Shown: positions 17,858 through 63,701, counted from the stretch's first letter. The stretch: DNA of 64,000 nucleotides from an uncultured virus (IMG/VR IMGVR_UViG_3300020045_008339) (IMGVR_UViG_3300020045_008339); one strand, 5' to 3'. The notes: generated from the letters alone by a model not told the origin. A program made the numbers and translations.

Positions 17858-17965
17858 TGGCCTTAACAGGGGTTGAACCTGTATCCTATGTTTGCTTCAT
17901 GACTGAGCGTGTCACAGTCCTTTGCTTTTACACAAACATCCGCACTACCATTGTGCTACCAAGCC
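17858..17965 (-). ncRNA. tRNA-like RNA with an enlarged anticodon arm
   Basis: Acceptor GGCTTGG/TAAGGCC-A, D-arm GCAC-AATGGTA-GTGC, T-arm ACAGG-TTCAACC-CCTGT, and ATGTTTG/CAAACAT closing a ~38-nt loop. Confidence 0.65.
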
Positions 17966-42817: not shown

Positions 42818-43219
42818 TTATTGTTTATTCCCCGTCCAGTTACCACTAAAAGGTGGAGAGGTTGTATAATTTGTCCATGTACCTGTAGAACTGCTACCGC
42901 TTAACACTCCATTGAAAGCTGCACCAGATGTTACAGAGCCTAATGTCATGTGTAGTTCACCGTTAAGGCTTACCGTTCCACTAGCTGCATAGGTTTTGCC
43001 TACGACTGGTGAAGTGATATTGCCAGCAACAATGCCGTCCACATTAATGGTCACTTCCCATGTTCCGTGGTCGTTTGCTCCTGTATATACACCCTTCCAT
43101 AATCCAGCAAAAGGATTGACGGCGGCGATACTTTCTTGCTTTGTGCAACTTGAAACCAACACTACTAATGCCATTGCAATTAACAATAGTGCGGCCAACT
43201 TGTAAATCTTATTTTTCAT
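42818..43219 (-). CDS. Beta-rich lipoprotein, phage-side copy
   Basis: VSSC lipobox followed by TKQES; G/W-rich beta strands; paralog of 45389-45769. Confidence 0.75.
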   Translation of the reverse strand: MKNKIYKLAALLLIAMALVVLVSSCTKQESIAAVNPFAGLWKGVYTGANDHGTWEVTINVDGIVAGNITSPVVGKTYAASGTVSLNGELHMTLGSVTSGAAFNGVLSGSSSTGTWTNYTTSPPFSGNWTGNKQ

Positions 43220-43537: not shown

Positions 43538-43689
43538 AAAATAGTCTTTACTATTATAACCCGTTGGCGGAATTAAATGAAAAATTGAAGGTCTGATTTA
43601 TCAGGCCTTTTTTGTAAATATACAATCTTCTATATTTTTTTGATTGATTTATATATGTTCGTATATTTGGCCTGCACAATTCCAAATGT

Positions 43690-44112
43690 ATGAATGATAA
43701 TCAACCATTTCTGGAACAGTTATATAAAGAATACCAACAGCTTGAAACAAGAAAAGCCAAGGTTGCCAACCTAATTGTTGAATATGGGGGTAGTATTCCA
43801 ACTCCTATTGTTACTGCTCCACCAACAACAACGGTTCCAGCCACTACAACCATTCCTCCAAATCAGTTCCATTTCAGCATATACTATCCATTGGCTGGTA
43901 CATGGAAGGACAAAATAAGATACATTCTGTTGCGTTTTGACGGACCAGCAACAGTGCAGGAAATAGTTGATAAGCTAATTCAATACGAATCCGATACAGA
44001 CAGGGAAAAACTGCACACAACAGTTACGCAGTACTGTTCCAATATGGGTAAAGAAGGCGAATTAATTGTTGAATCAGGTTACAGAAACAAATATTTTGTA
44101 AAAAATGGATAA
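43690..44112 (+). CDS. Cargo: coiled coil + P/T linker + winged-helix-like protein
   Basis: TATATTTG box at 43662-43669; ATVQEIVDKL...CSNMGKEGELIV; hairpin at 44114-44150. Confidence 0.65.
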   Translation: MNDNQPFLEQLYKEYQQLETRKAKVANLIVEYGGSIPTPIVTAPPTTTVPATTTIPPNQFHFSIYYPLAGTWKDKIRYILLRFDGPATVQEIVDKLIQYESDTDREKLHTTVTQYCSNMGKEGELIVESGYRNKYFVKNG

Positions 44113-44165
44113 TAAAAAAGCCCCGAAAGTTTGGCGACCGTGGGGCTTTTAAACAATTAAAATAC

Positions 44166-44234
44166 GGGGCGTCCTCTGGTGAGGTTGAGACGAATTAAGA
44201 CCCTCTCTTATCGGTTCGATTCCGATACGCTCCA
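44166..44234 (+). ncRNA. Cargo: tRNA-like RNA with G3:U70
   Basis: GGGGCGT/ACGCTCC-A acceptor; ATCGG-TTCGATT-CCGAT T-arm. Confidence 0.6.
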
Positions 44235-44290
44235 TCTTTTGCTCTTACCCAAAGGTAAGAAGATTTTGTTATCCAACAAGGTTTTCAACC

Positions 44291-45196
44291 GTGCATTGTA
44301 TCAAGACAAATTTTATAAAGATACTGCATGTCCTAAAAGATGCTTTAGGCGATGGGATACCTGTCGATGGCAATCTCAAAAGACCCGGTCCCAAACCAAG
44401 GTTCACAGATTTAGAAGTCATAGCGTTAAGCCTTACTGCTGAATGCCTTGGCATTGATAGTGAACTTTACCTGTTCCATAAAATCGAATCAGATTACAAG
44501 AATTTCTTCCGCAACATGATAAGCCGAAGGCAGTACAATGACAGGAGGAAATCCCTACTCAACTGGCAAGAAGAACTAAGGAAGAAGCTGGCATACAAAC
44601 TCAATGCTATCAACAATGTTTTTGCCATTGATTCCATGCCACTTGAAATATGCAAGCTGGCAAGGGAGCAGCGTAACAAGATGGGCAAGGAACATGAATG
44701 GAGTTCACCTGATAAAGGTTACTGTGCATCACAGGGAAAATACTTCTATGGTTACAAGATACACAGTGTATGCTCTCCTGTAGGTGTTATTGAATCATTT
44801 GATTTAAGCAAGGCTTCAATTCACGATGTAAAATATCTTAAAGATGTTGCCACAACTTTCAGCAACTGCATAATTACTGGTGATAGAGGTTACATAAACA
44901 GGTCTTTGCATGAGCAGTTACTGGAAAACAAGAATATCAGGATTGAAGTCCCATATAGGCACAACCAGAAAGAGAAGAAGAAAATTGACTATGCATACAA
45001 ACGTATCCGCAAGCGAATAGAAACAGTGTTCTCACAGCTTTGCGACCAGTTCATGATACAGCGTAACTATGCAAAATCCTTCAATGGTTTCCGCACGAGG
45101 ATACTTGCCAAAATCAGTGGCATGACCATATTGCAGTACATAAACAAATTCATACTTGACAGGCCAGTTGGACAAGTCAAGTATGCTTTGAAATAG
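44291..45196 (+). CDS. IS982-family DDE transposase
   Basis: FTDLEVIAL, SRRQYNDRR, AIDSMP, GYCASQ..FYGYKIH, GDRGY, RKRIETVFSQL. Confidence 0.93.
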   Translation: MHCIKTNFIKILHVLKDALGDGIPVDGNLKRPGPKPRFTDLEVIALSLTAECLGIDSELYLFHKIESDYKNFFRNMISRRQYNDRRKSLLNWQEELRKKLAYKLNAINNVFAIDSMPLEICKLAREQRNKMGKEHEWSSPDKGYCASQGKYFYGYKIHSVCSPVGVIESFDLSKASIHDVKYLKDVATTFSNCIITGDRGYINRSLHEQLLENKNIRIEVPYRHNQKEKKKIDYAYKRIRKRIETVFSQLCDQFMIQRNYAKSFNGFRTRILAKISGMTILQYINKFILDRPVGQVKYALK

Positions 45197-45197
45197 C

Positions 45198-45386
45198 TTA
45201 TTCATCCCTGCCAAAGAAGCCGAACATCATGAGCATAATAAAAACAATTACCAACATCTGCATGTATTCTATCAACCAATTTGGAACTTTTGTTTCCTTC
45301 CTCTTTTTACTGGCATGTATGGCAAACTTCGTTGCAGCAAAAAAGAAGGGCGATGCCACTAGCAATTGAAGTATTAGGTACTTCAT
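45198..45386 (-). CDS. Cargo: 62-aa two-TM protein
   Basis: Coupled to the upstream lipoprotein gene. Confidence 0.55.
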   Translation of the reverse strand: MKYLILQLLVASPFFFAATKFAIHASKKRKETKVPNWLIEYMQMLVIVFIMLMMFGFFGRDE

Positions 45387-45388
45387 AA

Positions 45389-45769
45389 CTATTGCTTTGT
45401 TCCTGACCAGGTTCCAGTATAATTGGGTGTCACAATATTGTTGACCCAACTTCCAGTTGCATTCGTACCAGACAAGATGCCCGTAAATACAGCACCCGAT
45501 GTAGCTGTACCTGCTGTTAAAGTAAACTGGCCATTTGAAGCAACCTGACCAGTTGCAACATAGCTTAAACCACTAGGTGTTGACTTGATGTTTCCAGTTG
45601 CAGAACCATCTGCATTGATAACAGCATCCCATTTACCATTGTCATTGGCTCCAGTGTAGGTTCCTTTCCACGAGCCAGCGAAAGGGCTAATGTCTTCTTT
45701 CTTTGAACAGGCAACGATGCTTACGAATGCCAACAGCAGTAACAGTTTTGACGAAATTTTTAGGAACAT
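45389..45769 (-). CDS. Cargo: beta-rich lipoprotein
   Basis: IVAC lipobox followed by SKKED; 51/98 identical to 42818-43219 by hand alignment. Confidence 0.8.
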   Translation of the reverse strand: MFLKISSKLLLLLAFVSIVACSKKEDISPFAGSWKGTYTGANDNGKWDAVINADGSATGNIKSTPSGLSYVATGQVASNGQFTLTAGTATSGAVFTGILSGTNATGSWVNNIVTPNYTGTWSGTKQ

Positions 45770-45815
45770 AAAAATTGGTTGGTTGCCGCAGTCCCTAAAG
45801 CAGTGTAAATAAAAA

Positions 45816-45981
45816 TAGCGTGGGACTTAATCAGCTATTGCTTTTTCGGGTACTTGGCAGAACCCAGCGACACAATAGACACAAATAAGCCCACGCCGTA
45901 GCATGAGCGAATCAACTGTCTCCCTGTGTCGCCTTTTAAACTGCCAAGTTTTGAAAAAGCACAGAAATAGCTAAAACGCTA
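45816..45981 (-). ncRNA. Cargo: long structured leader RNA
   Basis: Seven nested helices capped by c(UACG)g on the minus strand. Confidence 0.7.
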
Positions 45982-46047
45982 GTATTTTGAACCGCTAAAA
46001 TAACGAATAATGCCTGCACGAAAGCAGGCATTTGGTATATTTGAAAT

Positions 46048-46176
46048 GGAAAAGGGATGCAGATGTTTTGGTAAGATACTAGGACAACCTCTAAGAAGAC
46101 CTAGTATGCTAAATGTTTCTAAAAGGTTAGAACCAATTATGAAACAACCAGACAACTGCACCCTTTCGTTTTTTTT
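46048..46176 (+). ncRNA. Cargo: candidate small RNA next to the right IR
   Basis: TATATTTG box at 46036-46043, branched fold, T8 tail. Confidence 0.5.
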
Positions 46177-46228
46177 ACTTCTGAATTAATTCCGCCAACA
46201 GGTTATTATAATGCTTTCAGGTTACAAC

Positions 46229-49500: not shown

Positions 49501-49542
49501 CTGCAATTGGGTGTCTTTTAGTAAACAGGCTATACTTAGCAT
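46531..49542 (-). CDS. Large helical protein with TM segments and a C-terminal helix-hairpin-helix; probable ejected virion protein
   Basis: 1003 aa, coupled to the giant gene; IPGIGPKTLQRLKDAGITT. Confidence 0.6.
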   Translation of the reverse strand: MLSIACLLKDTQLQNDLRVLVQYIGYSQASVTGKASLRSVYEQIRSAGIEVDLRTIGAIYADVLPTNEAAFNSQDEIDKVVGKNYTDLLRAIMLENAQQEQTIGEMPSEEWVVHQMAQPFYSAYTEKGEFESDMVAMQKILLRGAKRFLGELPKEEATQENFQEVLNRVLSYETMGVMDMNGRLNNLQDLFNYSKTEIDKVYDGLDNKPQAAFMKAQLEEYFKEYMAASYSLMFSKGEAKTVLVDIMKEAGFGKQLSNGKSIIDWVKLAGYTNNVSALRDNIDRVLLDKGYSVDVVQQIKNSLEREFNDLVAETLVKSEKMLDTKLNAVRKPHEIKSDLKRLSELNVLGIFQNNHDALLHKMLGVDNITANDMRNLAEISQAVTDLTNELTFDAQGNPVSTDGKDFYAGFAFSTLKEKINDIVTANVQNKTAMLNAIDKVNKFMQLRATGLIMNPINVIENNRSGFWELLSTTLLQVKQQGWDAFFRDKDLFKAVFQDVAKGGVGYGDEGLKFANIVNVEHDIAKKDNYLKRFLHIATFPARNFLSGSDSAFKAVITNKIFQMNLHQALREKAGMTKDEANEFMNEALYGQKKADAQKRAKEILDKYNLPNDKNAVVRLANDLVKANLNSNQAIDHTAIEAAMKSAYHVAAIGMGHEAQTDGVIGSILGATPEAISGLREKRKMREKKLIAEGKTGKLATHKAMDVLINNIGLLFIGSQFNWIQLRLQATGLGIVTGYMGSWKDKIDFEDKETLKKSMTEIRNAQQQMARGIVGLTTCLTLLTIAYAIAAGIKGDDDKDLDTLDWLYLKIKGDYELSRLFKKNAPELMILQYNMATSKNVPTGTLKYMQNFFNLGDGFSASGKLTESIKQSLRGETDEAQGQLGSIVGGNIEMPLWRAYKGYYQLFKWGVGGDVSSDYKKPDTFVNGVFGGGMVEDLGWFKRQKPLTSIPGIGPKTLQRLKDAGITTPEQFKKADWQNIRNEKGHKIFDKKDREKIDEFIKQY

Positions 49543-52500
49543 TTCAATTTGTTTATTAAGTCCTGAATGGATGTGCTTGATGAAATCTTTGTTTGCAAGG
49601 CATTGGCCTTGTTCGCATATTCCTGCAATTTAGCTGCCCTTTTCTTTTCAGCATCATTAACAGGGTTGTCAATTTTTTTGGCTGCATCCTTTACATCTTC
49701 CGTGGTAGTGCCAACACCTTTTTCCGCAGCATCATCAGTAACCATTGAATTGCTCTCGGTATTAACCATTATTTTTTTCTTCCTTACCTGCTTTTCAGTC
49801 ATTAAGCCATCCGTGAAGAAAGAAGAGAAATCGCCATCCCTTAACACCTTCAACAGTTTGCCAGCATTAAGGGCAACACCTGCATCGTGCATAAGTTCCT
49901 GCCACATCCTTGTAGCTAATCCAATGGCTTTTTTTACGTCATTGTTATTGGAGGTGGACTTAACTGCATTCAGTTCATGCATTACCCTTGCTACGGCAAC
50001 TATTTTCTTAATGGTATCAACATTTATTTTTCTCAAATGGTCTAGCAATGCAGGAGCCCAGGTTCCAGCTTCATTGCCCCATTTCTCCTTTGCCCACTCA
50101 ACTATGGAGTTGCCATCGTTCACAAGTCCTGCCATATGGGTTACTGCATATTCCTGATTGCCGTATTCCAAATTGTCGAATACGTTCTCCAATGTAATCT
50201 TTGACCTGTAGTTCTCAACTTCTGTTTCTGATGTTGTTATTTTAAGGTTCTTGATAAAATCATCATCCACGTTTGAAGGGTTTGGGGTTTCAATTTCCTC
50301 TTCTTCTCCAACCGGAGCAATGTTTTCACTGTCTGGTGGAACTGCCTCTTTGATAGCTTGTTTTTTCTTGAAGACATAATTATCTATTGTTTCCATCAAT
50401 GGAGCAAAGCCCACTGATTTTTTTATGAGGCTAATTTTAGCATCGTTACTGTAATTGGCCAGCACGTCCATAATAATGGGCTGTGCCTTTTCCCATCCAA
50501 GACGGGCAAGCCTCTTGTTGAAATTTGCTTTGCTGCCAAACCTCTGTGTTACTGCTTTGAGGAAATCGTCCACACCCAAATCGGTAATGAAGGCATAGTT
50601 GGCAAAAGCATTGATTATACTATCCTCTTTGCTGCTACTATCACTTAAACCCATGTTTTCATTAACCACAGTTGCAGCAGCATTGTAAGTGTTTTCTGGT
50701 TCAAGGAAACCTTGCTCTGAATAGGATGCTGTATTGTATTGGCTACTAACCTGAACATAATCCAACATTTCTATATCAGCAGCCCTCAACCTACCCTTCA
50801 ACGCTTGCATGTCCTTTTCAGCTTCCTTTACATTACCAAACACTATAACTCCATTTGCACCGTAAGTAGTTACAAGCGTTGTGATGGTTTTATAAGCCTT
50901 ACTAACGTTTCCTTTAATTGTATTGATTGGTAATGAAACCTTGCCTAATATATGATTTCTTCGGCTTATGAGTAAAACTTCTGGTTTGCCCCCAGCACCG
51001 TACTTCCTTGAAGTAAGGTAAGCAGCCACATCCTGCGTTGAAAATATTTTTGCTGGATTATATCCCCTCAAAAATGCAATCCTGTCAAACGAGTGCACAG
51101 CAACTTCATTTGTTTCACCACTTGTAGCCCTCTTTAATGTTGGGTCGTAAATATCTTCATCAAAAGTTGCATAGTTACCACTGGTCAGGTTCATGATAAT
51201 AGCTTCCAGTTCTGCAATATCTTCAAGGGCTTCCTTCAACCTGCCAAACATGCGGTGGTCTTGGTCAGATGGTTTGAGGTTTCCTGATGGATGGTTATGC
51301 ACGAATACAACCTTTACAGCTTCTTCCGCTATAGCTGTATTCACAATAACCTTTGGCTCTACCATTACACCTGTTTGAATACCTGTACCAAGATGCTGTG
51401 TAAAGTAACTGCCATCCTTACGGATGAATACAGCATAAGCATTTTCCACGCCCTGCGTTTCAAGGTTCCTGAACAACCAAGCCACATCTGCATGGCTCTC
51501 TATTTTTTCAGTACCAGAGAACATTAAATGCTTCTGTTCACTAAACTTCCTTTCGATAGTTACGAAGTCACCATTGGTAGCTTGCAATTTTGTAGGTGTC
51601 TGCAAGTCCATAACATTGAACATTAAACCCTGAACATACTGCAAACCTTCTTCTTCTAGTGAAGTGTCAACTTCTGTATTTTCATTATCCTTGTACTTCG
51701 CAATCTTGGCATCCTGTTCCAATTTAAGCTGTGCCTTTATAGTGTTATCTATAGTGGCCAGTTCAGCTATTTTACTGTTCAGTTCCTCCATGCCGTCAAC
51801 ATCGTTGCCATCTTTATCCTGTACAACAAAAGGAATTTTGGATTGTGCTTCATAAACAGGTACATCTTTTTTCTTTTCAGCAATAATGCTTTTACTGTAA
51901 TCAACATTTTCCTGTAAATCCTCAAAAGATTTACGAAGCCTTATGCCTAAAGAAATATCGTTGGAAGATGCTGTGAACTTGTCAATTTCCACACCGTCCA
52001 ACATTAACTGCAAGTCATTGTAAAAAGATTTGTTCCTGTCGTCATACTGTACTGTAGCGATAATGTCAACACCATTCATCTTGGCAACATTAAATGATTT
52101 TCCCACAGATGTTTTAGCAGTCCTATCTTTCAAAACTTCCAGTATTTCCCTAGCTATAAAAGTCTGCCTCTGTATTTTCTTGCCATTCACCACAGCACTC
52201 TGCATGATTTGCTTTTTGCCTACACGAAGGGTTGAAACCTTGTCTTCCTCTTTCTCCTTTTTCTTTTCTTCATCGGTTTTTGGCTCTGGCTTGTACTCTT
52301 CATTCAGTTCAGAAAGACGGGCAATTGCAGCTTCCTTACGTTCAATCAATTCCTGCCTGTACTCAATAATCCTCCTATCATTGTTCACTGCACTTTCAGC
52401 AGAATACTTCTTACGCTGCCATGCAGTAAAACTTTCGTTCAATTTTTGAACCTCTTTAGTAAGTACAGCTTTTTTCTTGAAGATGGGGTCGCCTGAAAGT

Positions 52501-55500
52501 TCTGCGGCCATTGCTCCCATATCAACATCATCTTCCGCAATATCCTTCATCCTACGCTGTATAGCACCACCCAATTTTAACTGTGCAATGAACTTAGCTT
52601 TAGTATTCACCAATTCGTACATTGATGCATCCAGTGTACGCTCCGTAGCATAGTAATAAGCCTGTACCTTATTGTCACGGTGCATCTTCGCCATTATGTT
52701 CATCTGGCGTTCAAACCTGCCGTTCCTCTGTTCCAAGTCAGCAGGTTTCCAAGTAATATCAAGATGGTGGCCAGCGATTACCCTCTTCTGTACATTCACG
52801 CCAACACCCATTTTACGGGTACTGCCAATAAGTACACGAACATCACCATTGTTTACCCTCTCATAAAGTTTTTCCCTCTTGCTCCTACTGTCATGGTCAT
52901 GGATAAACTCTATTTCTTCTGGGGCAATACCCAATTCTATAAGCGATTTTTTCAAGGCATTGTAAACATCAAAACGTACAGCAGTATTAGCCTCACGCAC
53001 AAGGTTGTCAAAGTCGGCCTCCGTAATGTCAAGGTACTTACCTGTACCATCATCTTCTTTGGCAAGCAGCTTCGTTTTTATTTGGGAAAGTGCAGGCTTT
53101 TTACCCCCTTCGCCAAAACTCTCACCAAACACTTCTATCATTTCTGTATCACTAAGCATCCCTTCATCTTCCAAGAAATTGTAAAGGTTAGTAACCTGGT
53201 CTTTTGTCTTTGGAGTGCCAAGGTCACAGAAAACAAGTTGAGTGCCCTTGTATGGCGTTGAATCAACGTACTCTTCCAATATGTTACGGGCAGCAGCTTC
53301 TATCTTGCTTCCCTCGCCTGCATCCGCATCTATCAAACGTGGGTCAACGGAAAGTTTCTTTGCAAAAGTTGTGGCCAGTACAGCGTAGGAAGGATTAACA
53401 CCCTTTTGTTCATCATAGCCATTTTCAAGTCCTAGAGTTTCCTTGTAAGCGTTACCCTTTGTTGCAATGTATTCCTGCAACATGCCTATGTATTCCAATT
53501 GGGAATTGGTAGGCTCAATCTTAACCAGTGTATGAATGGCTTTTGGCCTATCAAGTACAATGTTGTTTGCATTGCGTACATCCGCAATTTCCTGATACAT
53601 GGTTATAAGTTCAGGTAAGTTCACAAACTGCCTGAACCTGCTTACCTCTTTGAACCTGCCCATGTAATATTCAAGGTCGGTAAAGTCCTCTGCAAAAAGA
53701 GCAGCCCACTGATCAAAAGTCCTTATGCCTAATTCAAGCATCTTGTTTGGACGGAGGTACTTGAACAAAAGGTACAGTTCGGCCATTGTGTTTGATATAG
53801 GCGTACCCGAAGCGAACAGGATACCTTTGTCGCCACCGTTAAGATTTTGCAGGTAACGGCAAGATATAAGCATGTTGAACGCCCTCTTACTGCCTATCAT
53901 GTTACCTAAGCCACGCACATTCCTTTTCTTGGTAATAAATTCAAGGTTCTTGAACTCTTGGCTTTCATCAACCATCATGAAATCAATACCCAACTGGCTA
54001 AAGTCCAGAATATCTTCATCCTTCTTTACATTCTTCAAATTGGCAATACGCTGCCTGTAATTGGATAGCCTATTTTCCAAACCTTTCAATTCCTTCTTAT
54101 CAGTAATGCCCCTCATTTCATCTTCAATCTCACTGCATAGTTCATCAATCAACTTAACCTGTATTTCAACAGGCATTGGGATTGCGTTAAGGTTCTCATG
54201 CGTAAGTATAATTGCGTCCCAATCGTTTGTGGCAATTTGGGAAAGAAGTCTTTTCCTGTTTTCAGGTTTGAAATCATTCTGCGAAGGGAACAGGATTTTT
54301 GCCAATGGGTAAGCCTTCCTGAACTCTGCTGCAAACTGTGGTATCTGTGATTTAAGACCTGTTATCAATGGTTTCTTGAACACACCAAGCCTCCTGCCTT
54401 CCATTGCGGTGGCAATCATCATCAATGTTTTACCAGAACCAACAATGTGGTCGGCAATACCGCCCTTCGTAGTAACAAAACGCCACACGCCATCCTTCTG
54501 GTGCGGCCTCAATTCAAAACCAAGCATACCCGGCAACTGTAGATGGGAACCATCGTACTGCCTAAGTATAGTTGTGTTGTAAACCTTATTGTAAACTTCC
54601 TGTATATTATTACGGATGGTTTCATCTTCGTACTTCCATTGGTCCCATAGGTTGCGTAGCTTCTTATAGTTGTCTTTAGCTACTGCTGTATCGGTTTCAT
54701 CAATATAAGTCTTACCTTCCCTGTCTGTGTACTTGACAATTGGCTCTATACCATTAAGGGCATGTTCAACAATCCACGAAGCCTTCTTTCTTGAAGTGGA
54801 AAAAGCATCGCTCTTTGCTGATTCACTCATACTAACAGTATAACTATCATTGCTCCTTGAGTAACGTATCATCAAAGAATTGTCACTCATAACATGCTGC
54901 AAGAACTGTTTCAGGAACGCAGTTGGCAACCAACGGGCATTCATTGGGCTGTAAATATCTATAGCCTCAATATCTGCTGGCTGCACTTTCTGCAATTCCG
55001 AAACATTATGCTCCATCCTTGCATCTTTCGCCTCCTGTAGCTTCTGTTTGACATTGCCAGACAGATATTCCTCTCTACTTACAAAAGTATTATTAGGCTG
55101 CTCGAATATAGCACCACCCTCCCTAGTTTCATCAATCAACACTTGCTCTGCAGATTTACCAAGCAGTTCCCCAATCCTGTGCAAATTGAGATTGCCAAAC
55201 TCTTCAAGTGACACCAATATTGCATCATGCACATTATCAACCTTGTCAAGTTTTTTAACTGGTTTGATAGTACGCTGTGTGAAAACATCAGAAGGAACAT
55301 AGCGGCCGCTTTCATCTTTCTTTTCCAATGCAAGGATGGTCCACTGGTCAGCATCCTGCTTAACAAGTGTGTAATTATCCTTTGCATTCAAACGGCCAAA
55401 CTGCTTAACAAAATCGTCGTAAACACCTTTGAGAGCCTTTCTTGTATTGGTTACGGCAAAATCGTTGTAGCCATTAAGTTCCTGATAGAACAGTTTATTT

Positions 55501-58500
55501 ACAAAAGCCCTTATCTTGGTAAACAGTGGGGCCTTTTCCCTTTGCTCCTTTCCGAGCCTCAATTTTTCAACTGCACGAATATTGAACATGTCAGCAGACA
55601 ATCCAACACTTTCAAGTTTTTCTGAATCAACAACCCCGTCCCTGATACGGTCAGGATTTATACCTGCCGCCCATGCTTTTGCATCCAGTTCCTCGTCCTT
55701 GTAAATATCACCAGTAACCCTACCTACATCACCAGAAGGGAGTACAACGATATTGCCTATCTTATCGTACTCTTCATTATTTACATAGTCGCTGGTTTCT
55801 TTTTTTACACGTTCGTTTTTTTGCTTCTGTTCCTCTGTGAAAAGTTCTTTCGTGAATATCTTGCCAATAGCTGTGTTGATGGCAGATTCAAGGTCAACAC
55901 CTTTTCCTGAAAGGTTGAAGCTGTCATTTGAATAGAGGCCACCCAACTCAACCTTTCCAAGCATCATATCTGGATTGATATGGAAATATGAATTGTACGA
56001 TACTGGCGTACCATTAATGGTAGTTGATTTTGATTTTACAAAAGACTGGTCAAGTATTTTTGTTTCGCCAATATCATATTTGCGGATGAAGATAATATCT
56101 GCAACAACCTCCGTTCCTGCCGCAGCTTTGAATGTTGTGTCTGGCAAACGTATAGCACCAATCATTTCACCTTGCTCCGCAATCAGTTCCCTTGTTTCCT
56201 GACTTTTGGAACTGTCCATCGTTCCCTTTGAAGTAACGAAGGCAACAACACCACCCGGCCTAACAAGGTCAAGCCCTTTTGCAAAGAAATAATTGTGTAT
56301 GCTTTTTGATGCAGACTGGTAGCGTTTGTCCTTACTTGCAAACATTGGGTCGAAAACTGATGTGCTGCCAAAAGGCACATTGGAAACAACAATATCGTAA
56401 TGGTTTTCTGGCAACCTTGCATCCTGCAAACCTTTGATATGAACATCGGCTAATGGATAAAGCTGCTTGAGCAACCTACCTGTAAGTTCATCAATTTCAA
56501 CGGCAGTTATTTCAGAGTTGGAAGACATTGCCTGTGGCATGGCAGCAATGAAGTTTCCCTTACCTGCGGAAGGCTCAAGGAAAGAACCACCCTTGAAGCC
56601 AGCAAGTGCAAGACCGTGCCATATAGATTTGGTAACAACGTGAGGCGTAAAGTGGGCATTGAGAACGCCAGCCTTTATCCCCTTCAACAAACCCTTTGCT
56701 CCTGTAGGGTCGAACAATTTAATTGCATCATGAACAGCTTGCACCTTGTCACGGTAGCGTTCATCAATTTCTTTCCATCCTTTTTCTGCTGGGTCTAACA
56801 GTATTTCTTTAAGTCCACCAAAACCAACATATTTGGCAAGCACAGATTGTTCATCAGGATTTGCCAATCTACCTGTTGATTCCAAATCAAACAAAAGTTT
56901 CAATGCTTCAATATTATTATTGAACATTATATTTTTGTTCCAAGTGGATTGCTCCTTAAAGTCTGTAGGGATGGTGTAATTCATAAGCCGAACTGCTGCG
57001 TTGTTTCCGGCCAAGCTATTTCCCTCGCCTCCGATTGGTTCAGTCCTGATGCTATCAGCATTTCCATTTTCTGGCTGTACTCCTTCTCCGCTTTCTGTAC
57101 TGTTGCTATCAGTTTTCCCTCCCCTTTCAGTTGGTCGTACAGTGGTTTTTTGTAATCCTTTATCAGGTTTAGCAGCATCGTTCCGTCTGTTCCCAGACTT
57201 TCCGCTTCCTCCTGACTGTTCTGTATCACCTTGTAATGTGCCATCGTCGTTTGGTTTAAATATTTCATCGTACCTTTTCTCAAACAGTACCATTAAATTT
57301 TGTTTCTCCGCCTTGCTTCTTGCTTCACTAGGTAATTCTATACCAAGAATCCTTTCCAATGGTTGTGAATAATACCTGTTATTCCATGCACCCGTAACAC
57401 TGGAATCATTAACAAGCCCTTCAAAATTACGGGTAACAAAATTGTTTACCATCGTGTACAGGTACTTTGGCAAATAATCAAAATCCCTTGTGCTCAAAAA
57501 TTCCTGCTTAACAAAATCAGCAATCGTATCAACATCAGGCGACTTCAAAATATCCAGTGCATCAATTTTGTTGCCTTCCTGATAGTTGGCAAGGACACCG
57601 CTTACTACGCTATCCAGTTTTTCCTGCCACGCCCACTCTATACCTGGCCTTTCATAAATGGTATTATAAACATCCGCAACCATTTCGGCCACCAGTTCAT
57701 CACCATTGGGCAATCCTTCCTGTGCAGCCCTACGCTGCATGTAATCAAAGAACAATAGATGCTGGGCTTCCTGTGCATCCTGTGCAGCCATATCAATCTG
57801 GTCTATCCTTTTTTGGATAGCTTGAGCAGCAAGTTCCAATTCCTTCTTTTCATCCTTGTTACGGGTAGCCTTCTGCTGGGAAACAAGTTCCTTCAATTCC
57901 TTTTGCAACGGCTCCACTTTACCCTGATGCTCTGCAATAAATTCATCGTTCACTTCATTTATCGCAGAAACATTCCTGTCCAGCATTTCCACAAGAGGAG
58001 GAGCAACAAATTTGTACTCACCTTCTTCAAACATTTCTGTTTGGGCTGATGGTTTGCCCTGAATACGTTCCAGTTGCTTGTAAAGGCTATTCAGTTCATT
58101 TTTGATTTTTTGCACAGCCCCTTTCTCACGCTTGGTTGCAACCTCTCTTTGGGTAAGGTCAATCTCTGCACTAAATAACTTTTCATTTGCATTTCCTTCG
58201 GCAGTGGCTCCAAACAAATCAGGAGTGGAATTTGAAATAGTTTTTTCAAGGGACTTGATTTTAGTTTTCAGTTTCTTCTCTGCCGTAGCAAGCTGCTTCT
58301 GTTTTTCATCAATCATGGCCATTACAGCCTTTTCCTCATTGGTCAGTCCAGATAACCTACTGACTTCCTGTTCTGCTGTATCTCCTTCGAGTTCTCCACC
58401 AGTTCCTTCAAGGCTTCCTTGTCCCCCTGTTTCCTCTGGTTGTTTTTCTCCTTTATCTGTAGAGATATTCTCTCCAACCCATCCAGCAAGGAAGAGTTGT

Positions 58501-61500
58501 TTTTCTGTGTCGTTAAGTTCGTTGTCATTTTCTATTAGGTTTTTTATCTCTGCCTGTTGTGATTCCGTTAAGCCAAACTGTAATTTTTCTCCTTCGCTAG
58601 ATTCCAATATAACGGGCTTATTGTTATTTTCCGAATTATCGAAAACAACAACTGAAACATCTGGGAACTGCTTAAGAAAATCAATCCTGCCATCCTGTGC
58701 ATTGGTGGCCCTTATAAAGTATTCAAGACGTACTACTCTTCTATCCTTGCCCTTATGATACCTCTTAATGATGTTGGCGAAGGCTTGTGTCGGTACATTG
58801 TAAACAAGATTTACATGAACCGCTTTGCCGTTACCAGTTGCTTTCTCAACAAAGGTAACCAATTTTTCGTTATCAGTAAACACACCGTCCCAAACGAAAG
58901 ACCTATCAGCCTTTGCACCTGTCATTACAGATGATTTGCCCACACCGGGACCACCAATAACAAACGATACTGCATCATAGTCTGGTGAAGTAATCAACTT
59001 GTCATATACGGAGTTTAAAATAACTGCCATATCATAGTTGTACTTTTCTGGAAAGGCTGCATCATAGTCTGGTATGAAAGTCCTGATTTTATCAGGGTCG
59101 GCCACGCCTTCAAAAGAAGCAAGGTAATTATCTACAACTTCGTTATGTTGTCCTTCGGTAAGGAGGAACTTTTGTCCTTTAGTTTTTTCGTTGCCATCGC
59201 CAACAGGTTTGCCATCAGTGTTTTCCTTACTTCCTTCGGGAACTTTACCATCATCTGGTAAAACGGTATCGTCCTCCTGTTCGCCTTGAATGTCGTTGTC
59301 GGTTGTTTCATCAATTAATGCTTTAATGTTATCAATAACTTCATCTGGGAATGCTGCTGCAAACTGTTCATCAAATTCTTCCCTATTTGCTTTGTAATCT
59401 TCCTGAAAATTTTCTGGGAAAAATTCATTATCAAAACCTTCATCAAACCTTTCTGTCATGAACGCTTCAAAGTTCACAGGCCATTGCTCTGGTATTTCAT
59501 CAAAGGCACGTTGAGGCTCAAATTCTCCCCACACAAGCAGTTCATCTTCTGGCATTTCATCAACAACTTCCGCAGCTTCTTCCTGAATATCCATGTACGC
59601 CTCAATAGGAACACCTATACGGTTATTTGTCTTTCCTGCACGTTGCACGAAATCAATATAGCCGCTATTGTACTGCCCTTCCAATGCATCAAGCACATCA
59701 AAAGAATGGGCATTGGGTTTTCTTTTGGCAATAGCCTTCAACCCTGAACGTACATAAGTTGCAGGGATACCCAAATCAACCTTGGGCTCAAATTTATCTG
59801 AATCGTTAAGTGAACGCTCCAATTGTGGAAGGAAGGAATTGTAAAAAGACTGGAACTCTTCCGACCTGTTTTCAAGACCAGCACGTTTGCTAGTATCACT
59901 TTCCATCTTTACTGATGGACGTTTCATTTTTACGCCAGCTTCATCAACAATATCAAAGTTCCTTTTACCACCTTTGCCAGACCTTGTTCTTATGGTGTCT
60001 GTATATTTAATGGTTGCACCTATTTGGTTTGCCAAGTCATTGGCTTGCTTCTCAATCTGTGAAAGTTTTTTTGTTGCATTAGCAGGTGTCCTCCTGTGTT
60101 CATCACGCAGGTTCATCAACGTGCTAATAGTAGCATCGTTTTCGTTTGACAAAATATCGTCCAGTAAATCCTCTGCTTTTGAAACAGAAGAAGGAGTGCC
60201 GTTACCAGCACCACCTTCTGTTTTTTCTAGTGGCCCCTTTTGCTGCCCCCCGTCCTTCCCCCTACCATTCTGGTTGCTGGGTTCTTGGTTGGGTAACTGC
60301 TGCTGGGACCTCCGGGCTTCTTGGTCACTGTCGCTTTCGGACTGCTGCTGCCTTTGCCCATTTTGGGTTTGATTCCTGCCATGACTGTTGGTTTTTGATG
60401 AAGAAATATGTTCTAAAAGTTTTCTTGATGTATCTAATTGATCTTGAATATCGCTCTTTTTACCACCGTCTTTATACTCTACACCTCCCTTGAACTTAGT
60501 TAATGCTTTTTCAAGTAAATTAATATTTTCTTTAAGTTGTTCAATCTTTGCTTTCTTTTCAACATCGGTCGAAGAATTAAAATCTAATAATGATTGTTTT
60601 ACACTTTCATCACCCGGATTAGCACTGGTATCTTCTGGGTTCAGTTCAATAGGATTGCTTATATCTTCTGGCTCACCCCTGATAATACTATTAACGCCAG
60701 CTATAAGTGATGTATCGTCAATAGGAAGTTCCTCCGGACGCTCTGTTATAATCTCCAATTCTTCTGGGGTGAAACTGTCAAGGAAACTATCCACAAGTTC
60801 CGTTCCCCTTACTTCTTCACTGGCCAATATTGTAGCAATATCATTTCGCCTTCCATCAATCTTGTCTGCTGCACTTTGGGCAACTACCTTAACATCATCG
60901 TCTGCCACACCTACATTTCTATTTGCAGAAGGATTGATAATAGCATTCTGTATGGCCAATGCCTCTTCCGTATCCTGATTGATAATATCAATTTGTGACT
61001 GCAATGGTTCATCTGCAATAAGTTTGTTATTATGCCTTATACGGTACTCCTGTGCAGCAAGTGTTGCAGCCTCCTTTTGTGTCAAAGGAACTTCCACTCC
61101 ATCACGAATTTTTGTTGTTGGCATTTTGCTTACAATCTTCTCCATCGTGTTTACCGCACGGATATTCCTGTCAGCTTCTTCCTGTGTTATTTCGCCAGTA
61201 GCCAAACTCTTATTAAAATACGCCCTATAAGTATCAGGGTTCATGCCAGCTTCAAAAAGGCTTTCCTTCAATATATTGCTCCTGTCACGTCCCCTTCTCA
61301 TGCCAGCACCGAAACCAAGGCCCATTGTTCCAATGGCTGTTTGCACAAATGTTTCAAGCATACTGTTACCAAGTTCGCCCGGCGTTGTATCCTTTCCAAG
61401 CATAACCTTATCGGCAATGGCAGTAATTGGGATGGGTACAAGTTCCTCCGCAGATTCTTCGGCAATAACAGAGAGAGCAGTCTTGCTACCTGCTTTTAGG

Positions 61501-63701
61501 CCATCAAGTATAGCACCCTGCAAACCCTTAGCCTTAACTGCTGCTTCAAAAGTTTTGAAAGTGACATTTTCGCCAGCTTCCAGTATTCCCTTCCCGAATA
61601 TTTTGCCAGTAAGGTTGGCTGGTGATAAAATGTTTTCAGATAAACCTTGTGGCAATGAAGTAATAAAAGCATAACCATGCCTCACTTTTTCATCGCTGGT
61701 ATATTTTGATGCATTCTGGTACCCCTGTTCGTAAGCCGCCAATGTTCCTGCTGCTGTAGTAGTAGAGAACTGCAACGCCTTTTCAAGTTTCTGGTACTTG
61801 CTCAAAGCAGCCTGTGTTTCTTCTACAATCTGTGCAGCCCTAGTCATACCGTCAACACCTTTCAATGCTCCTGCACCCTTAACTATAGCCTTACCTGCTG
61901 CAAGTTCTGCACCAAGTGTAACAGGAGCATTGAAAGCACCAAGTCCCATAAAATTACCAGTGGACGTACCAATGGTATTCAGTACACTTTCATAGTTGAA
62001 ATTAAAATGGTTCTTGCCATCAGCACCTTTCTGCAAAAGTTTTTGGTTCTCTGGGATGAAGCCGTAGTTTTCCAAACGGTTCTGTATAAGTTCATTTGTC
62101 TTGTCAGCATAAGCCTTTGACGCAAATATCCTATTAGCACCCTGCCCAATACCAGACCACACATCATCAATACCAGAAGCTACGTTGGATATAAAACCCT
62201 TAACCCTGATAGGGTCAGCACCAGTGTTCCAACCGATACCCATTTGCTCCTTGTAGTTCTTCTGTATATCCTTCGCTTCATCAATAGTAATAGGGTCGCC
62301 CTTTGCGTTCATTGTCTTAACAATCGCTTCCAAATCTTCATCACTGGCACTTGTACCAAAAATACTATGTAGCATTCTCCTTCCATAACCAACTGCTGGC
62401 ACACCTGGTACTGCAATATTCGATTCAACAGCATATTCAATCTGCCTACGGTTGGCAAGCTGGTTAATCATGTTTATACGCTGCTGTCTTTTTACCAATT
62501 CAGGAAAGTTCTTTTTGAAAGTTCCATCAATACCCTTCATAGTGCCTTCATATTCTTTCAGGGAATCAAAATATGAGGAAATATTTTTGTCGGCAAGCAG
62601 GGTATTCAATTTTTGAAGTTCTGCTACCGTTACCTGTGGCTTGCCGCCTGTTTTAAATGCCGCCGCATCTGCTTCACGCTTCATCATCAATGTTTGTGCC
62701 TCCGCTAATTTCTTAGGGTCGGCCATCCTGATTTTTTCCGCCAGATCATCCTGCATAAAACCCATTACAGCATCCCTGCCATCCATCCAGTTCCTTGCCT
62801 GTAAGGTTTGCTTTGTTTCAAGTTCGTTGTTTGTTTTAGCAACATTCAAAGCAGTGATCTTAGCTGTATCGTCAGATACTTTATTGTCGCCCAACAACTG
62901 CCTCTTGAGTACGCCAACCTTCATAATGGCATCCTTGTCCATAGTGATAGGTACACCTTTGAAAACCTGTTTTGTAATAGCCTTGTTACTAACTTGGGAT
63001 ATTGATTTTTTTAGGTCATCAAGGTATTTTTGCTTCTCTTTTTGTACGGCATCTATAGCTGGGTCTATTTGCACACGCATAGCAGCACCTTCATAACCAC
63101 CAGAGGGGATGTGTAACTTCTTTTTTTCTTCAAGCTCTACTATTTCTTCCGTAAGAGCTTTTATCCTTTCGTTAGCATAATTTTTTATTACACCAAAATC
63201 ATCGCCGCCAGTAATTTGCCTACGGCGATATTCCTTCTCATCCTGTTTATTGGGCATGTGGCCACCAGCAATACCTGTATTTTGAATTTGCTGGATAGCG
63301 GAGATAGAAAATTTGTCTGTTGGTTTTTGTTGGCTAGAAATGCCATCTATGGAGAAACGATTCCAGTTATCGTAATCCTGTTCAAGGAACGATTTGGCTT
63401 TCTGTGTTTCATCTTCTTTTTTAGCAGCAAAAGTATCATCAACTTTTTTAGCTACAGCAGTTCCGCCACCTGCTTTTTCAATCAGCTTCGATTCCGCTTC
63501 CTTTTCTGCCAATAAGTCTAAAGAGGAAATCTTTGAAGAGCCACCAGTAGAAGGCTGGTCGCCAGTTTTTTTTTTTTGAGTTTCTCCAAGCAATTCTAAT
63601 GTGGAAGGTTTGCCCTCCGCTTGCTCAATCAGGTTCTTATCACTGATACTTTCATTGATAAGGTCGAGAGAACTTGGTTTCGGTCTTGTTGCTTTTGACA
63701 T
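49536..63701 (-). CDS. Giant DarB-like polyvalent protein (zeta-like P-loop kinase, N6-adenine MTase, SNF2-like helicase, RadC/JAB)
   Basis: GGPGVGKS near 58940; LEPSAGKG near 56570 and NVPF near 56380; VGSGKT near 54435, DESQ near 53965, SGTPISN, QRNGR; HNHPSG...SDQD near 51290. Confidence 0.9.
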   Translation of the reverse strand: MSKATRPKPSSLDLINESISDKNLIEQAEGKPSTLELLGETQKKKTGDQPSTGGSSKISSLDLLAEKEAESKLIEKAGGGTAVAKKVDDTFAAKKEDETQKAKSFLEQDYDNWNRFSIDGISSQQKPTDKFSISAIQQIQNTGIAGGHMPNKQDEKEYRRRQITGGDDFGVIKNYANERIKALTEEIVELEEKKKLHIPSGGYEGAAMRVQIDPAIDAVQKEKQKYLDDLKKSISQVSNKAITKQVFKGVPITMDKDAIMKVGVLKRQLLGDNKVSDDTAKITALNVAKTNNELETKQTLQARNWMDGRDAVMGFMQDDLAEKIRMADPKKLAEAQTLMMKREADAAAFKTGGKPQVTVAELQKLNTLLADKNISSYFDSLKEYEGTMKGIDGTFKKNFPELVKRQQRINMINQLANRRQIEYAVESNIAVPGVPAVGYGRRMLHSIFGTSASDEDLEAIVKTMNAKGDPITIDEAKDIQKNYKEQMGIGWNTGADPIRVKGFISNVASGIDDVWSGIGQGANRIFASKAYADKTNELIQNRLENYGFIPENQKLLQKGADGKNHFNFNYESVLNTIGTSTGNFMGLGAFNAPVTLGAELAAGKAIVKGAGALKGVDGMTRAAQIVEETQAALSKYQKLEKALQFSTTTAAGTLAAYEQGYQNASKYTSDEKVRHGYAFITSLPQGLSENILSPANLTGKIFGKGILEAGENVTFKTFEAAVKAKGLQGAILDGLKAGSKTALSVIAEESAEELVPIPITAIADKVMLGKDTTPGELGNSMLETFVQTAIGTMGLGFGAGMRRGRDRSNILKESLFEAGMNPDTYRAYFNKSLATGEITQEEADRNIRAVNTMEKIVSKMPTTKIRDGVEVPLTQKEAATLAAQEYRIRHNNKLIADEPLQSQIDIINQDTEEALAIQNAIINPSANRNVGVADDDVKVVAQSAADKIDGRRNDIATILASEEVRGTELVDSFLDSFTPEELEIITERPEELPIDDTSLIAGVNSIIRGEPEDISNPIELNPEDTSANPGDESVKQSLLDFNSSTDVEKKAKIEQLKENINLLEKALTKFKGGVEYKDGGKKSDIQDQLDTSRKLLEHISSSKTNSHGRNQTQNGQRQQQSESDSDQEARRSQQQLPNQEPSNQNGRGKDGGQQKGPLEKTEGGAGNGTPSSVSKAEDLLDDILSNENDATISTLMNLRDEHRRTPANATKKLSQIEKQANDLANQIGATIKYTDTIRTRSGKGGKRNFDIVDEAGVKMKRPSVKMESDTSKRAGLENRSEEFQSFYNSFLPQLERSLNDSDKFEPKVDLGIPATYVRSGLKAIAKRKPNAHSFDVLDALEGQYNSGYIDFVQRAGKTNNRIGVPIEAYMDIQEEAAEVVDEMPEDELLVWGEFEPQRAFDEIPEQWPVNFEAFMTERFDEGFDNEFFPENFQEDYKANREEFDEQFAAAFPDEVIDNIKALIDETTDNDIQGEQEDDTVLPDDGKVPEGSKENTDGKPVGDGNEKTKGQKFLLTEGQHNEVVDNYLASFEGVADPDKIRTFIPDYDAAFPEKYNYDMAVILNSVYDKLITSPDYDAVSFVIGGPGVGKSSVMTGAKADRSFVWDGVFTDNEKLVTFVEKATGNGKAVHVNLVYNVPTQAFANIIKRYHKGKDRRVVRLEYFIRATNAQDGRIDFLKQFPDVSVVVFDNSENNNKPVILESSEGEKLQFGLTESQQAEIKNLIENDNELNDTEKQLFLAGWVGENISTDKGEKQPEETGGQGSLEGTGGELEGDTAEQEVSRLSGLTNEEKAVMAMIDEKQKQLATAEKKLKTKIKSLEKTISNSTPDLFGATAEGNANEKLFSAEIDLTQREVATKREKGAVQKIKNELNSLYKQLERIQGKPSAQTEMFEEGEYKFVAPPLVEMLDRNVSAINEVNDEFIAEHQGKVEPLQKELKELVSQQKATRNKDEKKELELAAQAIQKRIDQIDMAAQDAQEAQHLLFFDYMQRRAAQEGLPNGDELVAEMVADVYNTIYERPGIEWAWQEKLDSVVSGVLANYQEGNKIDALDILKSPDVDTIADFVKQEFLSTRDFDYLPKYLYTMVNNFVTRNFEGLVNDSSVTGAWNNRYYSQPLERILGIELPSEARSKAEKQNLMVLFEKRYDEIFKPNDDGTLQGDTEQSGGSGKSGNRRNDAAKPDKGLQKTTVRPTERGGKTDSNSTESGEGVQPENGNADSIRTEPIGGEGNSLAGNNAAVRLMNYTIPTDFKEQSTWNKNIMFNNNIEALKLLFDLESTGRLANPDEQSVLAKYVGFGGLKEILLDPAEKGWKEIDERYRDKVQAVHDAIKLFDPTGAKGLLKGIKAGVLNAHFTPHVVTKSIWHGLALAGFKGGSFLEPSAGKGNFIAAMPQAMSSNSEITAVEIDELTGRLLKQLYPLADVHIKGLQDARLPENHYDIVVSNVPFGSTSVFDPMFASKDKRYQSASKSIHNYFFAKGLDLVRPGGVVAFVTSKGTMDSSKSQETRELIAEQGEMIGAIRLPDTTFKAAAGTEVVADIIFIRKYDIGETKILDQSFVKSKSTTINGTPVSYNSYFHINPDMMLGKVELGGLYSNDSFNLSGKGVDLESAINTAIGKIFTKELFTEEQKQKNERVKKETSDYVNNEEYDKIGNIVVLPSGDVGRVTGDIYKDEELDAKAWAAGINPDRIRDGVVDSEKLESVGLSADMFNIRAVEKLRLGKEQREKAPLFTKIRAFVNKLFYQELNGYNDFAVTNTRKALKGVYDDFVKQFGRLNAKDNYTLVKQDADQWTILALEKKDESGRYVPSDVFTQRTIKPVKKLDKVDNVHDAILVSLEEFGNLNLHRIGELLGKSAEQVLIDETREGGAIFEQPNNTFVSREEYLSGNVKQKLQEAKDARMEHNVSELQKVQPADIEAIDIYSPMNARWLPTAFLKQFLQHVMSDNSLMIRYSRSNDSYTVSMSESAKSDAFSTSRKKASWIVEHALNGIEPIVKYTDREGKTYIDETDTAVAKDNYKKLRNLWDQWKYEDETIRNNIQEVYNKVYNTTILRQYDGSHLQLPGMLGFELRPHQKDGVWRFVTTKGGIADHIVGSGKTLMMIATAMEGRRLGVFKKPLITGLKSQIPQFAAEFRKAYPLAKILFPSQNDFKPENRKRLLSQIATNDWDAIILTHENLNAIPMPVEIQVKLIDELCSEIEDEMRGITDKKELKGLENRLSNYRQRIANLKNVKKDEDILDFSQLGIDFMMVDESQEFKNLEFITKKRNVRGLGNMIGSKRAFNMLISCRYLQNLNGGDKGILFASGTPISNTMAELYLLFKYLRPNKMLELGIRTFDQWAALFAEDFTDLEYYMGRFKEVSRFRQFVNLPELITMYQEIADVRNANNIVLDRPKAIHTLVKIEPTNSQLEYIGMLQEYIATKGNAYKETLGLENGYDEQKGVNPSYAVLATTFAKKLSVDPRLIDADAGEGSKIEAAARNILEEYVDSTPYKGTQLVFCDLGTPKTKDQVTNLYNFLEDEGMLSDTEMIEVFGESFGEGGKKPALSQIKTKLLAKEDDGTGKYLDITEADFDNLVREANTAVRFDVYNALKKSLIELGIAPEEIEFIHDHDSRSKREKLYERVNNGDVRVLIGSTRKMGVGVNVQKRVIAGHHLDITWKPADLEQRNGRFERQMNIMAKMHRDNKVQAYYYATERTLDASMYELVNTKAKFIAQLKLGGAIQRRMKDIAEDDVDMGAMAAELSGDPIFKKKAVLTKEVQKLNESFTAWQRKKYSAESAVNNDRRIIEYRQELIERKEAAIARLSELNEEYKPEPKTDEEKKKEKEEDKVSTLRVGKKQIMQSAVVNGKKIQRQTFIAREILEVLKDRTAKTSVGKSFNVAKMNGVDIIATVQYDDRNKSFYNDLQLMLDGVEIDKFTASSNDISLGIRLRKSFEDLQENVDYSKSIIAEKKKDVPVYEAQSKIPFVVQDKDGNDVDGMEELNSKIAELATIDNTIKAQLKLEQDAKIAKYKDNENTEVDTSLEEEGLQYVQGLMFNVMDLQTPTKLQATNGDFVTIERKFSEQKHLMFSGTEKIESHADVAWLFRNLETQGVENAYAVFIRKDGSYFTQHLGTGIQTGVMVEPKVIVNTAIAEEAVKVVFVHNHPSGNLKPSDQDHRMFGRLKEALEDIAELEAIIMNLTSGNYATFDEDIYDPTLKRATSGETNEVAVHSFDRIAFLRGYNPAKIFSTQDVAAYLTSRKYGAGGKPEVLLISRRNHILGKVSLPINTIKGNVSKAYKTITTLVTTYGANGVIVFGNVKEAEKDMQALKGRLRAADIEMLDYVQVSSQYNTASYSEQGFLEPENTYNAAATVVNENMGLSDSSSKEDSIINAFANYAFITDLGVDDFLKAVTQRFGSKANFNKRLARLGWEKAQPIIMDVLANYSNDAKISLIKKSVGFAPLMETIDNYVFKKKQAIKEAVPPDSENIAPVGEEEEIETPNPSNVDDDFIKNLKITTSETEVENYRSKITLENVFDNLEYGNQEYAVTHMAGLVNDGNSIVEWAKEKWGNEAGTWAPALLDHLRKINVDTIKKIVAVARVMHELNAVKSTSNNNDVKKAIGLATRMWQELMHDAGVALNAGKLLKVLRDGDFSSFFTDGLMTEKQVRKKKIMVNTESNSMVTDDAAEKGVGTTTEDVKDAAKKIDNPVNDAEKKRAAKLQEYANKANALQTKISSSTSIQDLINKLKC

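Follow-up and report, generated by a model that had tools for sequence, protein, structure and literature searches.

A cargo-bearing IS982 element inserted in phage DNA

The window analysed here, a 64,000-nucleotide stretch of DNA from an uncultured virus (IMG/VR IMGVR_UViG_3300020045_008339), contains at positions 43559..46203 an IS982-family unit of 2,645 bp with four open reading frames (ORFs). It is very probably an autonomous transporter insertion sequence (tIS), from an old, single-copy branch of Chitinophagaceae and Sphingobacteriaceae, that was inserted whole in an AT-rich intergenic site of the phage. We favour a model, with a probability of roughly 0.6, in which a portable module for RNA control precedes the transposase of this tIS. 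The anatomy of the unit, its branch, the target duplications, the fold and alanine identity of a tRNA mimic and the alternative pairing of a leader RNA are all documented by sequence comparison, and from them we infer that transposition is regulated by RNA.

The unit is bounded by 18-bp inverted repeats (IRs), at 43559..43576 (plus strand) and 46186..46203 (minus strand), which match in 17 of 18 positions and start with ACC, in keeping with the terminal AC expected of IS982 elements; the left IR is the same as that of plain 1-kb members of the family. An exact 7-bp target duplication, TATTATA, flanks both sides (43552..43558 and 46204..46210), inside the IS982 range of 2–10 bp. Bounds, repeats and duplication were thus confirmed as proposed in an initial annotation of the sequence, and the duplication supports its view that the unit moved as one, in a single-piece insertion. 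The 14-nt core of the IR occurs only twice in the whole window, allowing up to two mismatches, which excludes both an inner IR and a composite transposon with two IS copies around the cargo; there is also a single transposase. Passengers and their own transposase therefore lie within one IR pair, which is the arrangement that defines a tIS. With its size and four ORFs, the unit is not a bare one-gene IS982 element of ca. 1 kb: registered members, as the initial annotation had assumed, are short (845–1,282 bp) and contain one gene, and the accessible text of a review of the family never uses the word "passenger" (PMC7335449).

The transposase gene (44291..45196, plus strand; 301 aa, GTG start) lies far inside the unit, with 732 bp to its left and 1,010 bp to its right. 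Its product is intact, as anticipated, matches the NCBIfam model IS982 NF033520 with 239.6 bits (cut-off 130), contains a DDE triad (D114, D198, E244) that is invariant across 38 homologs and is ca. 50% identical to the transposase of IS1187. The window is phage DNA, as indicated by matches to a terminase large subunit and a primase/helicase, and the insertion is intergenic, with a DUF4031 gene on one side and a 62-aa ORF on the other. The G+C content of the element (0.397) is that of the window (0.398).

A branch of cargo-bearing IS982 relatives

A search for other copies yielded ten further distinct cargo elements, eight complete and two cut by contig ends, from Chitinophagaceae, Pedobacter and one phage, making a total of 11 cargo elements with that of the window, nine of them complete. 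The eight are found in a viral contig (L063, 10001-18190; 8,190 bp), Flavipsychrobacter (3,933 bp), Terrimonas ferruginea (2,411 bp), Pedobacter N23S346 (2,436 bp), Chitinophagaceae UBA1930 (2,261 bp), a Pedobacter metagenome-assembled genome (3,273 bp), G110 (3,722 bp) and G183 (2,235 bp). The nine complete elements thus span 2,235–8,190 bp, their IRs match in 16–18 of 18 positions and eight of them show exact duplications of 7–9 bp. Seven of the nine are located in bacterial contigs, among ordinary genes (identified by eye), so that the phage setting, which the initial annotation had made part of its description, is incidental. Cultured carriers include Terrimonas ferruginea DSM 30193, Pedobacter psychrodurus RP-3-21 and Pedobacter sp. 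N23S346.

In a quick IQ-TREE run (78 rows, midpoint-rooted, no bootstrap), a branch with an SH-aLRT support of 99 separates the 11 cargo transposases, together with 41 proteins whose context is unknown, from the other rows, and the clustering of the cargo label was matched in none of 500 label shuffles. An N-terminal signature is common to the closest transposases in the databases, most of which are encoded on long contigs; the next closest are on contigs of 1–2 kb. None of the 11 branch transposases with context has the nearby IRs of plain elements; the plain sister elements are of ca. 1,010 bp, with IRs at 86–88 bp and 20 bp from the transposase gene, and no plain member of the cargo branch was seen among the transposases with context. 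One left and one right IR were found in each of the five genomes tested; by comparison, the IR pattern has 15 matches in a genome that contains a plain element.

These elements were collected in several ways. A DNA pattern for the N-terminus of the branch retrieved 43 loci, of which 33 without a transposase were dropped as chance matches and three of the remaining ten were duplicate genome or viral loci. A family search matched 13 of 401 genomes, with 13 regions that comprised two cargo elements, seven plain elements and four more distant ones with other ends; a second family set yielded one match in 301 genomes, and a class-wide pattern scan gave no additional cargo element. The same IRs also bound two short units, of 424 bp (L070, 10001-10424) and 113 bp (L091, 301-413), which resemble miniature inverted-repeat transposable elements derived from plain IS982.

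We considered whether the branch consists of immobile relics that are retained for their cargo. A single copy per genome, long terminal branches and the lack of any repeat insertion among those seen are what this would predict; nevertheless, the transposase frames are open, the IRs are near-perfect and the exact duplications in eight of nine elements each lie at a different site, which makes it very improbable.

A conserved module upstream of the transposase

The usual layout of these elements is a left IR, a gene for a coiled-coil and winged-helix protein, a hairpin, an antisense promoter, the transposase and a variable cargo behind a fold-back leader. In the window, a hairpin followed by a T run (43588..43613, plus strand), evident in both sequence and fold, lies just inside the left IR and is probably a terminator that shields the element against outside transcription. 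A putative promoter of Bacteroidota type can be read off the sequence at 43639..43669 (plus strand; TTTG, 19 nt, TATATTTG), on the Bacteroidota consensus that also serves for the antisense pattern below. It precedes the gene for a 140-aa coiled-coil and winged helix-turn-helix (wHTH) protein (43690..44112, plus strand), whose model contains a helix and a winged helix (pLDDT, a predicted confidence score, of 69); its best Foldseek matches are wHTH proteins, none of them with E ≤ 0.001. Distant wHTH homologs are the first gene in 8 of the 11 elements, and weakly so in a ninth, and the window protein matches a profile from the proteins of five other elements with an E value of 1.8e-4 (in a 40-protein set).

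A GC-rich hairpin with a AAGTTTGGCGACC loop (44116..44150; strand not assigned; the T run is longer on the minus strand) follows the wHTH gene, and an equivalent one is found 3' of this gene in 10 of the 11 elements (two by eye). Its commonest loop matches the 5' start of the alignment of the Lacto-int RNA motif in one supplement of its description (PMC2864571, supplement file 5). We discarded the idea that this loop is a copy of the IR: the loops vary and the IRs do not.

Closer to the transposase, an antisense promoter pattern with -7 and -33 boxes (44250..44280, minus strand) is directed back over the tRNA mimic described below. It is present in 9 of 11 cargo elements, 36–74 nt before the transposase start; it is missing from the five plain elements and occurs in 11 among 639 background windows. 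A short hairpin around the reverse -7 box (44244..44259, plus strand), 3' of the mimic, recurs in all ten elements tested. From this promoter pattern we would predict an antisense RNA running from ca. 44243 to 44112.

A tRNA mimic with alanine identity

The 69-nt tRNA mimic (44166..44234, plus strand) is well supported as a structured RNA, with strong covariation among its copies. It has a 7-bp acceptor stem with G1-C72, G2-C71, G3:U70 and A73, a small D-like hairpin that follows the acceptor stem directly, with no connector, a 9–10-bp arm with a 7-nt loop and a 5-bp T arm; CCA is not encoded. Neither ARAGORN nor Rfam at gathering level recognised the window mimic (best Rfam score, 18.6 bits), no cloverleaf was called by ARAGORN or Rfam RF00005 for the mimics in the window or in the other loci tested, and its own folding is not distinctive (z = -0.3). 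Conversely, a covariance model built from three other copies scored it at 42.9 bits, and the copy in L184 at 48.5 bits. Mimics occur in five of the 11 elements, always in a fixed place, ending 53–60 nt before the transposase start (5/5), and pattern or model searches added seven further copies, for a total of 12, with lengths of 68–73 nt.

In an alignment of six mimics, which was fitted to the model, 90.8% of cells are paired and both sides have changed in 15 of the 24 pairs; this level of pairing was reached by none of 500 shuffles, and slid controls gave 41–49%. All 12 mimics have G1-C72, G2-C71, G3:U70 and A73, with variation in positions 4–7; the search pattern had fixed U70 and A73 for four of the 12 and G3 for none. 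G3:U70 is the main determinant for alanyl-tRNA synthetase (AlaRS), according to the accessible part of PMC7609411, and every copy carries the AlaRS identity, with both G3:U70 and A73 in an acceptor stem of 7 bp. Because of this G:U pair, the plus strand must be the functional one. By eye, D-loop and T-loop combine GG with C56 in seven copies and GA with U56 in two; L429 and L433 do not fit, and L128 is ambiguous. Both antisense promoter boxes are found 11–17 nt after 7 of the 12 mimics, as against 3 of 117 real tRNAs; the -7 box had served to select one of the loci, L194.

The mimic is not restricted to IS982. In L194 it lies ahead of an IS1595 transposase, together with the same hairpin and promoter and the remains of a wHTH gene, in the same order; in L388 it comes after a wHTH-like gene and has a divergent IS1595 transposase as neighbour. 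Further settings are a prophage-like region (L230), a chromosomal island (L408) and, for three copies, viral contigs. Since several copies have no transposase downstream, control of transposition cannot be the sole role of the mimic.

The mimic itself might then be the payload: an Ala-charged adaptor that uses its 7-nt loop as anticodon (mostly UGA, for Ser codons), or a sink for AlaRS or EF-Tu, toxic unless neutralised by the antisense RNA. The two would then form an all-RNA module for addiction or against phages, with IS982, IS1595 and phages as its carriers. The universal G3:U70 agrees with this, and so does the position of the loop, 9–10 nt before the T stem, which is that of the anticodon loop in class I tRNAs and where U is second and A last in 11 of 11 copies. 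Likewise, both promoter boxes follow the mimics in L388 and L408, where no transposase lies downstream, and mimics stand alone in phage contigs. Moreover, allo-tRNAs with G3:U70 were charged and used in Escherichia coli, two of six variants being lethal, in the available portions of PMC5389517 and PMC7609411. On the other hand, the full antisense promoter is missing after 5 of the 12 mimics and is kept in elements without a mimic. CUUGA(C/G)A is the loop of 8 of 11 copies, three of them selected on it by the search pattern, and the window loop, AUUAAGA, deviates; C occupies position 37 in 5 of 11 loops, unlike in real anticodon loops, and the lack of a connector before the D arm makes use by the ribosome uncertain. 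On balance we find this quite unlikely. A broader form is equally doubtful to us: transposons and phages of Bacteroidota would share a family of minimal alanine-identity mimics with an antisense RNA, charged by AlaRS and misreading Ser, Pro or Leu codons or acting as decoys for tRNA-targeting defences, and the IS982 branch and some IS1595 transposases would have come under such an all-RNA module.

Scans with a T-arm pattern retrieved 38, 28 and 5 loci from viral contigs, mostly real tRNAs or transfer-messenger RNAs (tmRNAs), including four distinct mimics and one match that is not tRNA-like; genome scans with RNA models (151 genomes each) returned mostly tRNA-Ala and tRNA-Val and added one mimic each. 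The mimic of Terrimonas (L128, 9872-9944; 73 nt, 20 bits on model R3) retains an alanine acceptor and a T arm and differs in the middle; the two cultured Pedobacter strains have no mimic. Five phage loci (L191, L195, L200, L215 and L216) contain RNAs of ca. 80 nt that resemble the tRNA-like domain of tmRNA without the tag region, with a tmRNA-type D loop and an alanine acceptor and with no ARAGORN call.

Right-hand cargo and fold-back leader

To the right of the transposase, a gene for a 126-aa lipoprotein (45389..45769, minus strand; Cys21) from a small beta-rich Bacteroidota family is coupled to a 62-aa hydrophobic ORF (45198..45386, minus strand), whose stop lies 1 bp from that of the transposase and which matches no family at cut-off. 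With the wHTH protein, these are the three passengers that had been described as a winged-helix protein, a lipoprotein and a small membrane protein. Just outside the left end, the phage itself has a gene (42818-43219, minus strand) for a paralog of the lipoprotein (49% identity); this gene has a terminator of its own and no fold-back leader. Cargo varies among elements and includes lipoproteins, membrane proteins, an SDH-type protease and an aspartyl protease with SEC-C; 5 of 42 cargo proteins have Pfam matches, and PADLOC gave two weak matches among 27 proteins.

The fold-back leader (45807..45978, minus strand) is a long rod upstream of the lipoprotein start, with a folding z of -6.7 in the window and of -4.5 to -7.2 in 11 copies. 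It is present in 10 of the 11 cargo elements, and the 15 loci examined with plain IS982 or more distant members of the family all lack it. The tip, GCGUGGG, can pair alternatively with a CCCACGC that precedes a U-rich tract. Across the variable tip positions, pairing with this downstream partner holds in all 33 cells (23.6 after shuffling; 3 of 20,000 shuffles), in a statistic that does not control for relatedness; this covariation points to a putative two-state switch before a mostly exported protein. Support for the leader rests on per-sequence folding and on the tip count, because RNAalifold on a MAFFT alignment retrieved the tip hairpin only. The 8.2-kb element of L063, in another phage, contains two tandem leaders and about a dozen passengers without Pfam matches.

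Among 41 Chitinophagaceae genomes, 13 also gave leader matches, of which 12 lie outside the known IS982 elements; IS1595 transposases, an integrase and restriction genes are found as neighbours. In L304 (5877-8553, reversed) and L307 (6917-9761, reversed), IS1595-type transposases are accompanied by passengers behind the same leader, and these are probably IS1595 transporter elements; we take their passengers to be KilA-N-like and a lipoprotein in L304, and a Panacea-like antitoxin and a membrane gene in L307.

This wide occurrence of the leader, and that of the mimic in other settings, would fit a passive capture, in which an IS982 with long-range ends took up ready-made Bacteroidota parts (the wHTH gene, the mimic, and the leader with its lipoprotein) and the RNAs serve the passengers, not transposition. 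Right-hand cargo is indeed mostly unrelated between elements, and a pairing of mimic and leader was rejected for lack of a cognate advantage (-21.0 vs -19.9 kcal/mol for non-cognate pairs). Against it, upstream order and spacing are kept across transposases only 58–72% identical to that of the window, the same order precedes the IS1595 transposase in L194, and the branch yielded no plain member. We regard capture as unlikely.

Of the three structured RNAs of the initial annotation, then, mimic and leader stand, and the third, a rod with a terminal T run (46048..46176, plus strand; z -4.7), is element-specific, with no homolog among 288 loci; it may be a small RNA or an expanded terminator. A 6S-like reading of this rod was rejected, as it has no Rfam match and no homolog. 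Likewise, the proposal of an RNA-rich IS982 module holds in that two RNAs co-occur with IS982 transposases in several cargo-bearing copies, but they are not private to IS982, given their presence in IS1595 elements, prophages and an integrative element, and the mimic reaches only 5 of 11 elements.

A model for RNA control of the transporter IS

In the model that we favour, the transposase of this tIS has been shifted ca. 0.7 kb inward and sits behind a portable module for its control by RNA, which comprises a promoter, a winged-helix gene, a leaky hairpin, the tRNA mimic and an antisense promoter. Transcripts from the left promoter would read through the hairpin and feed the transposase. The mimic would probably be excised by RNase P and RNase Z, receive CCA and be charged by AlaRS, and the transposase message that remains after the cut would have a hairpin at its 5' end. 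The antisense RNA, of ca. 130 nt, would pair with the precursor and hold both mimic and transposase low, a damping that we propose only tentatively, as we do the possible regulation of the promoters of the element by the wHTH protein. At the other end, the leader is likely to gate the envelope-protein cargo through a switch between its two pairings. A low output of transposase would explain the single copies.

Several observations weigh against this model. The mimic is missing from 6 of the 11 elements, and no transposase lies downstream of it in L230, L388, L408, L429, L432 and L433. The wHTH proteins are very divergent (13–25% identity to that of the window), and L131 is devoid of most of the upstream module. 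In L063 there is no exact duplication, and the flanks are inverted, not direct, repeats. The branch itself was delimited with a provisional tree and with biased sampling, because 9 of the 11 elements were recovered through a pattern for its N-terminus. Finally, the search for copies of the window element revealed no second insertion site, and that for the empty site, via DUF4031 relatives, found none among 79 loci, the closest being at most 62% identical.

The cargo branch of IS982 is apparently undescribed, and mimic and leader are apparently uncatalogued structured RNAs: the literature searched, of incomplete coverage and with few subscription journals, contains no account of them in the text available, both RNAs are absent from Rfam 15 and the mimic is invisible to ARAGORN. 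The branch provides environmental Bacteroidota with a carrier of envelope genes, and possibly of defence genes, and a compact RNA that combines the AlaRS identity pair with a tRNA elbow makes charging and misreading directly testable.

Two other features of the window, both on the minus strand, deserve mention. At 17858-17965, close to two tRNA-Met genes, a 108-nt sequence matches the Rfam tRNA model (40.4 bits) and was missed by ARAGORN; at 49536-63701, an ORF of 4,721 aa contains methyltransferase- and helicase-like motifs and is, we presume, DarB-like.

Comparison with known systems

Allo-tRNAs resemble the mimic in being irregular tRNA-like genes on mobile DNA, near transposon or toxin-antitoxin genes, some with G3:U70 and mismatched anticodons; as far as the accessible parts of their descriptions extend, they differ in having an acceptor branch of 8/4 or 9/3 and in occurring in Clostridia, Proteobacteria and Acidobacteria (PMC5389517, PMC7609411). 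The mimic is found mainly in Bacteroidota, is 68–73 nt long, lacks a variable arm and has an acceptor/T branch of 7/5 in all copies, for which an assignment to allo-tRNAs was rejected. The tRNA-like domain of tmRNA has alanine acceptor identity, a T arm and no canonical anticodon arm, all of them shared with the mimic. However, the mimic has a D-like hairpin and, by eye, lacks the tmRNA D-loop and the linker motifs of the phage matches resembling mini-tmRNAs; it was not accepted as a tmRNA, given that all copies share that short length, without a tag reading frame or an ARAGORN tmRNA call.

The cargo leader recalls the P1 C4 and P4 CI antisense systems, whose targets have an upstream copy, a central complement and a downstream copy; it appears to have a similar layout beside a start codon, with a downstream partner that covaries and an upstream copy seen by eye. 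No Rfam match to C4 or CI was obtained in the window region or in eight other loci, and trans pairing of mimic and leader was not detected. In addition, C4 and CI have no T loop in the text available (PMC5499578), and the mimic has one. The Lacto-int RNA motif, whose alignment starts with the same AAGUUUGGCGAC as the GC-rich hairpin, also lies upstream of a recombinase gene; in the accessible material it belongs to Lactobacillales phages and tyrosine integrases, and the likeness comes solely from comparing loops (PMC2864571).

At the level of the whole element, IS1595 transposases of the same hosts are associated with the same leader, mimic or wHTH parts. Cargo elements of the IS1595 family are an example of tIS. 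The window element likewise has its passengers within one IR pair, as in the definition of tIS, and differs in that its transposase, of another family, is preceded by a conserved RNA module, which falls outside that definition in the part of the source available (PMC9330008). With IS982 elements such as IS1187 and ISRa1 it shares the transposase family, the DDE triad, IRs that start with AC, a duplication of 2–10 bp and the very 18-bp IR of plain 1.0-kb elements; the cargo branch stands apart from the family, as portrayed in the accessible sections of its review (PMC7335449), in its size (2.2–8.2 kb), its single copies and a transposase far from both IRs. In all, this cargo-carrying branch extends the behaviour of transporter IS to IS982, a family described as bare 1-kb elements.

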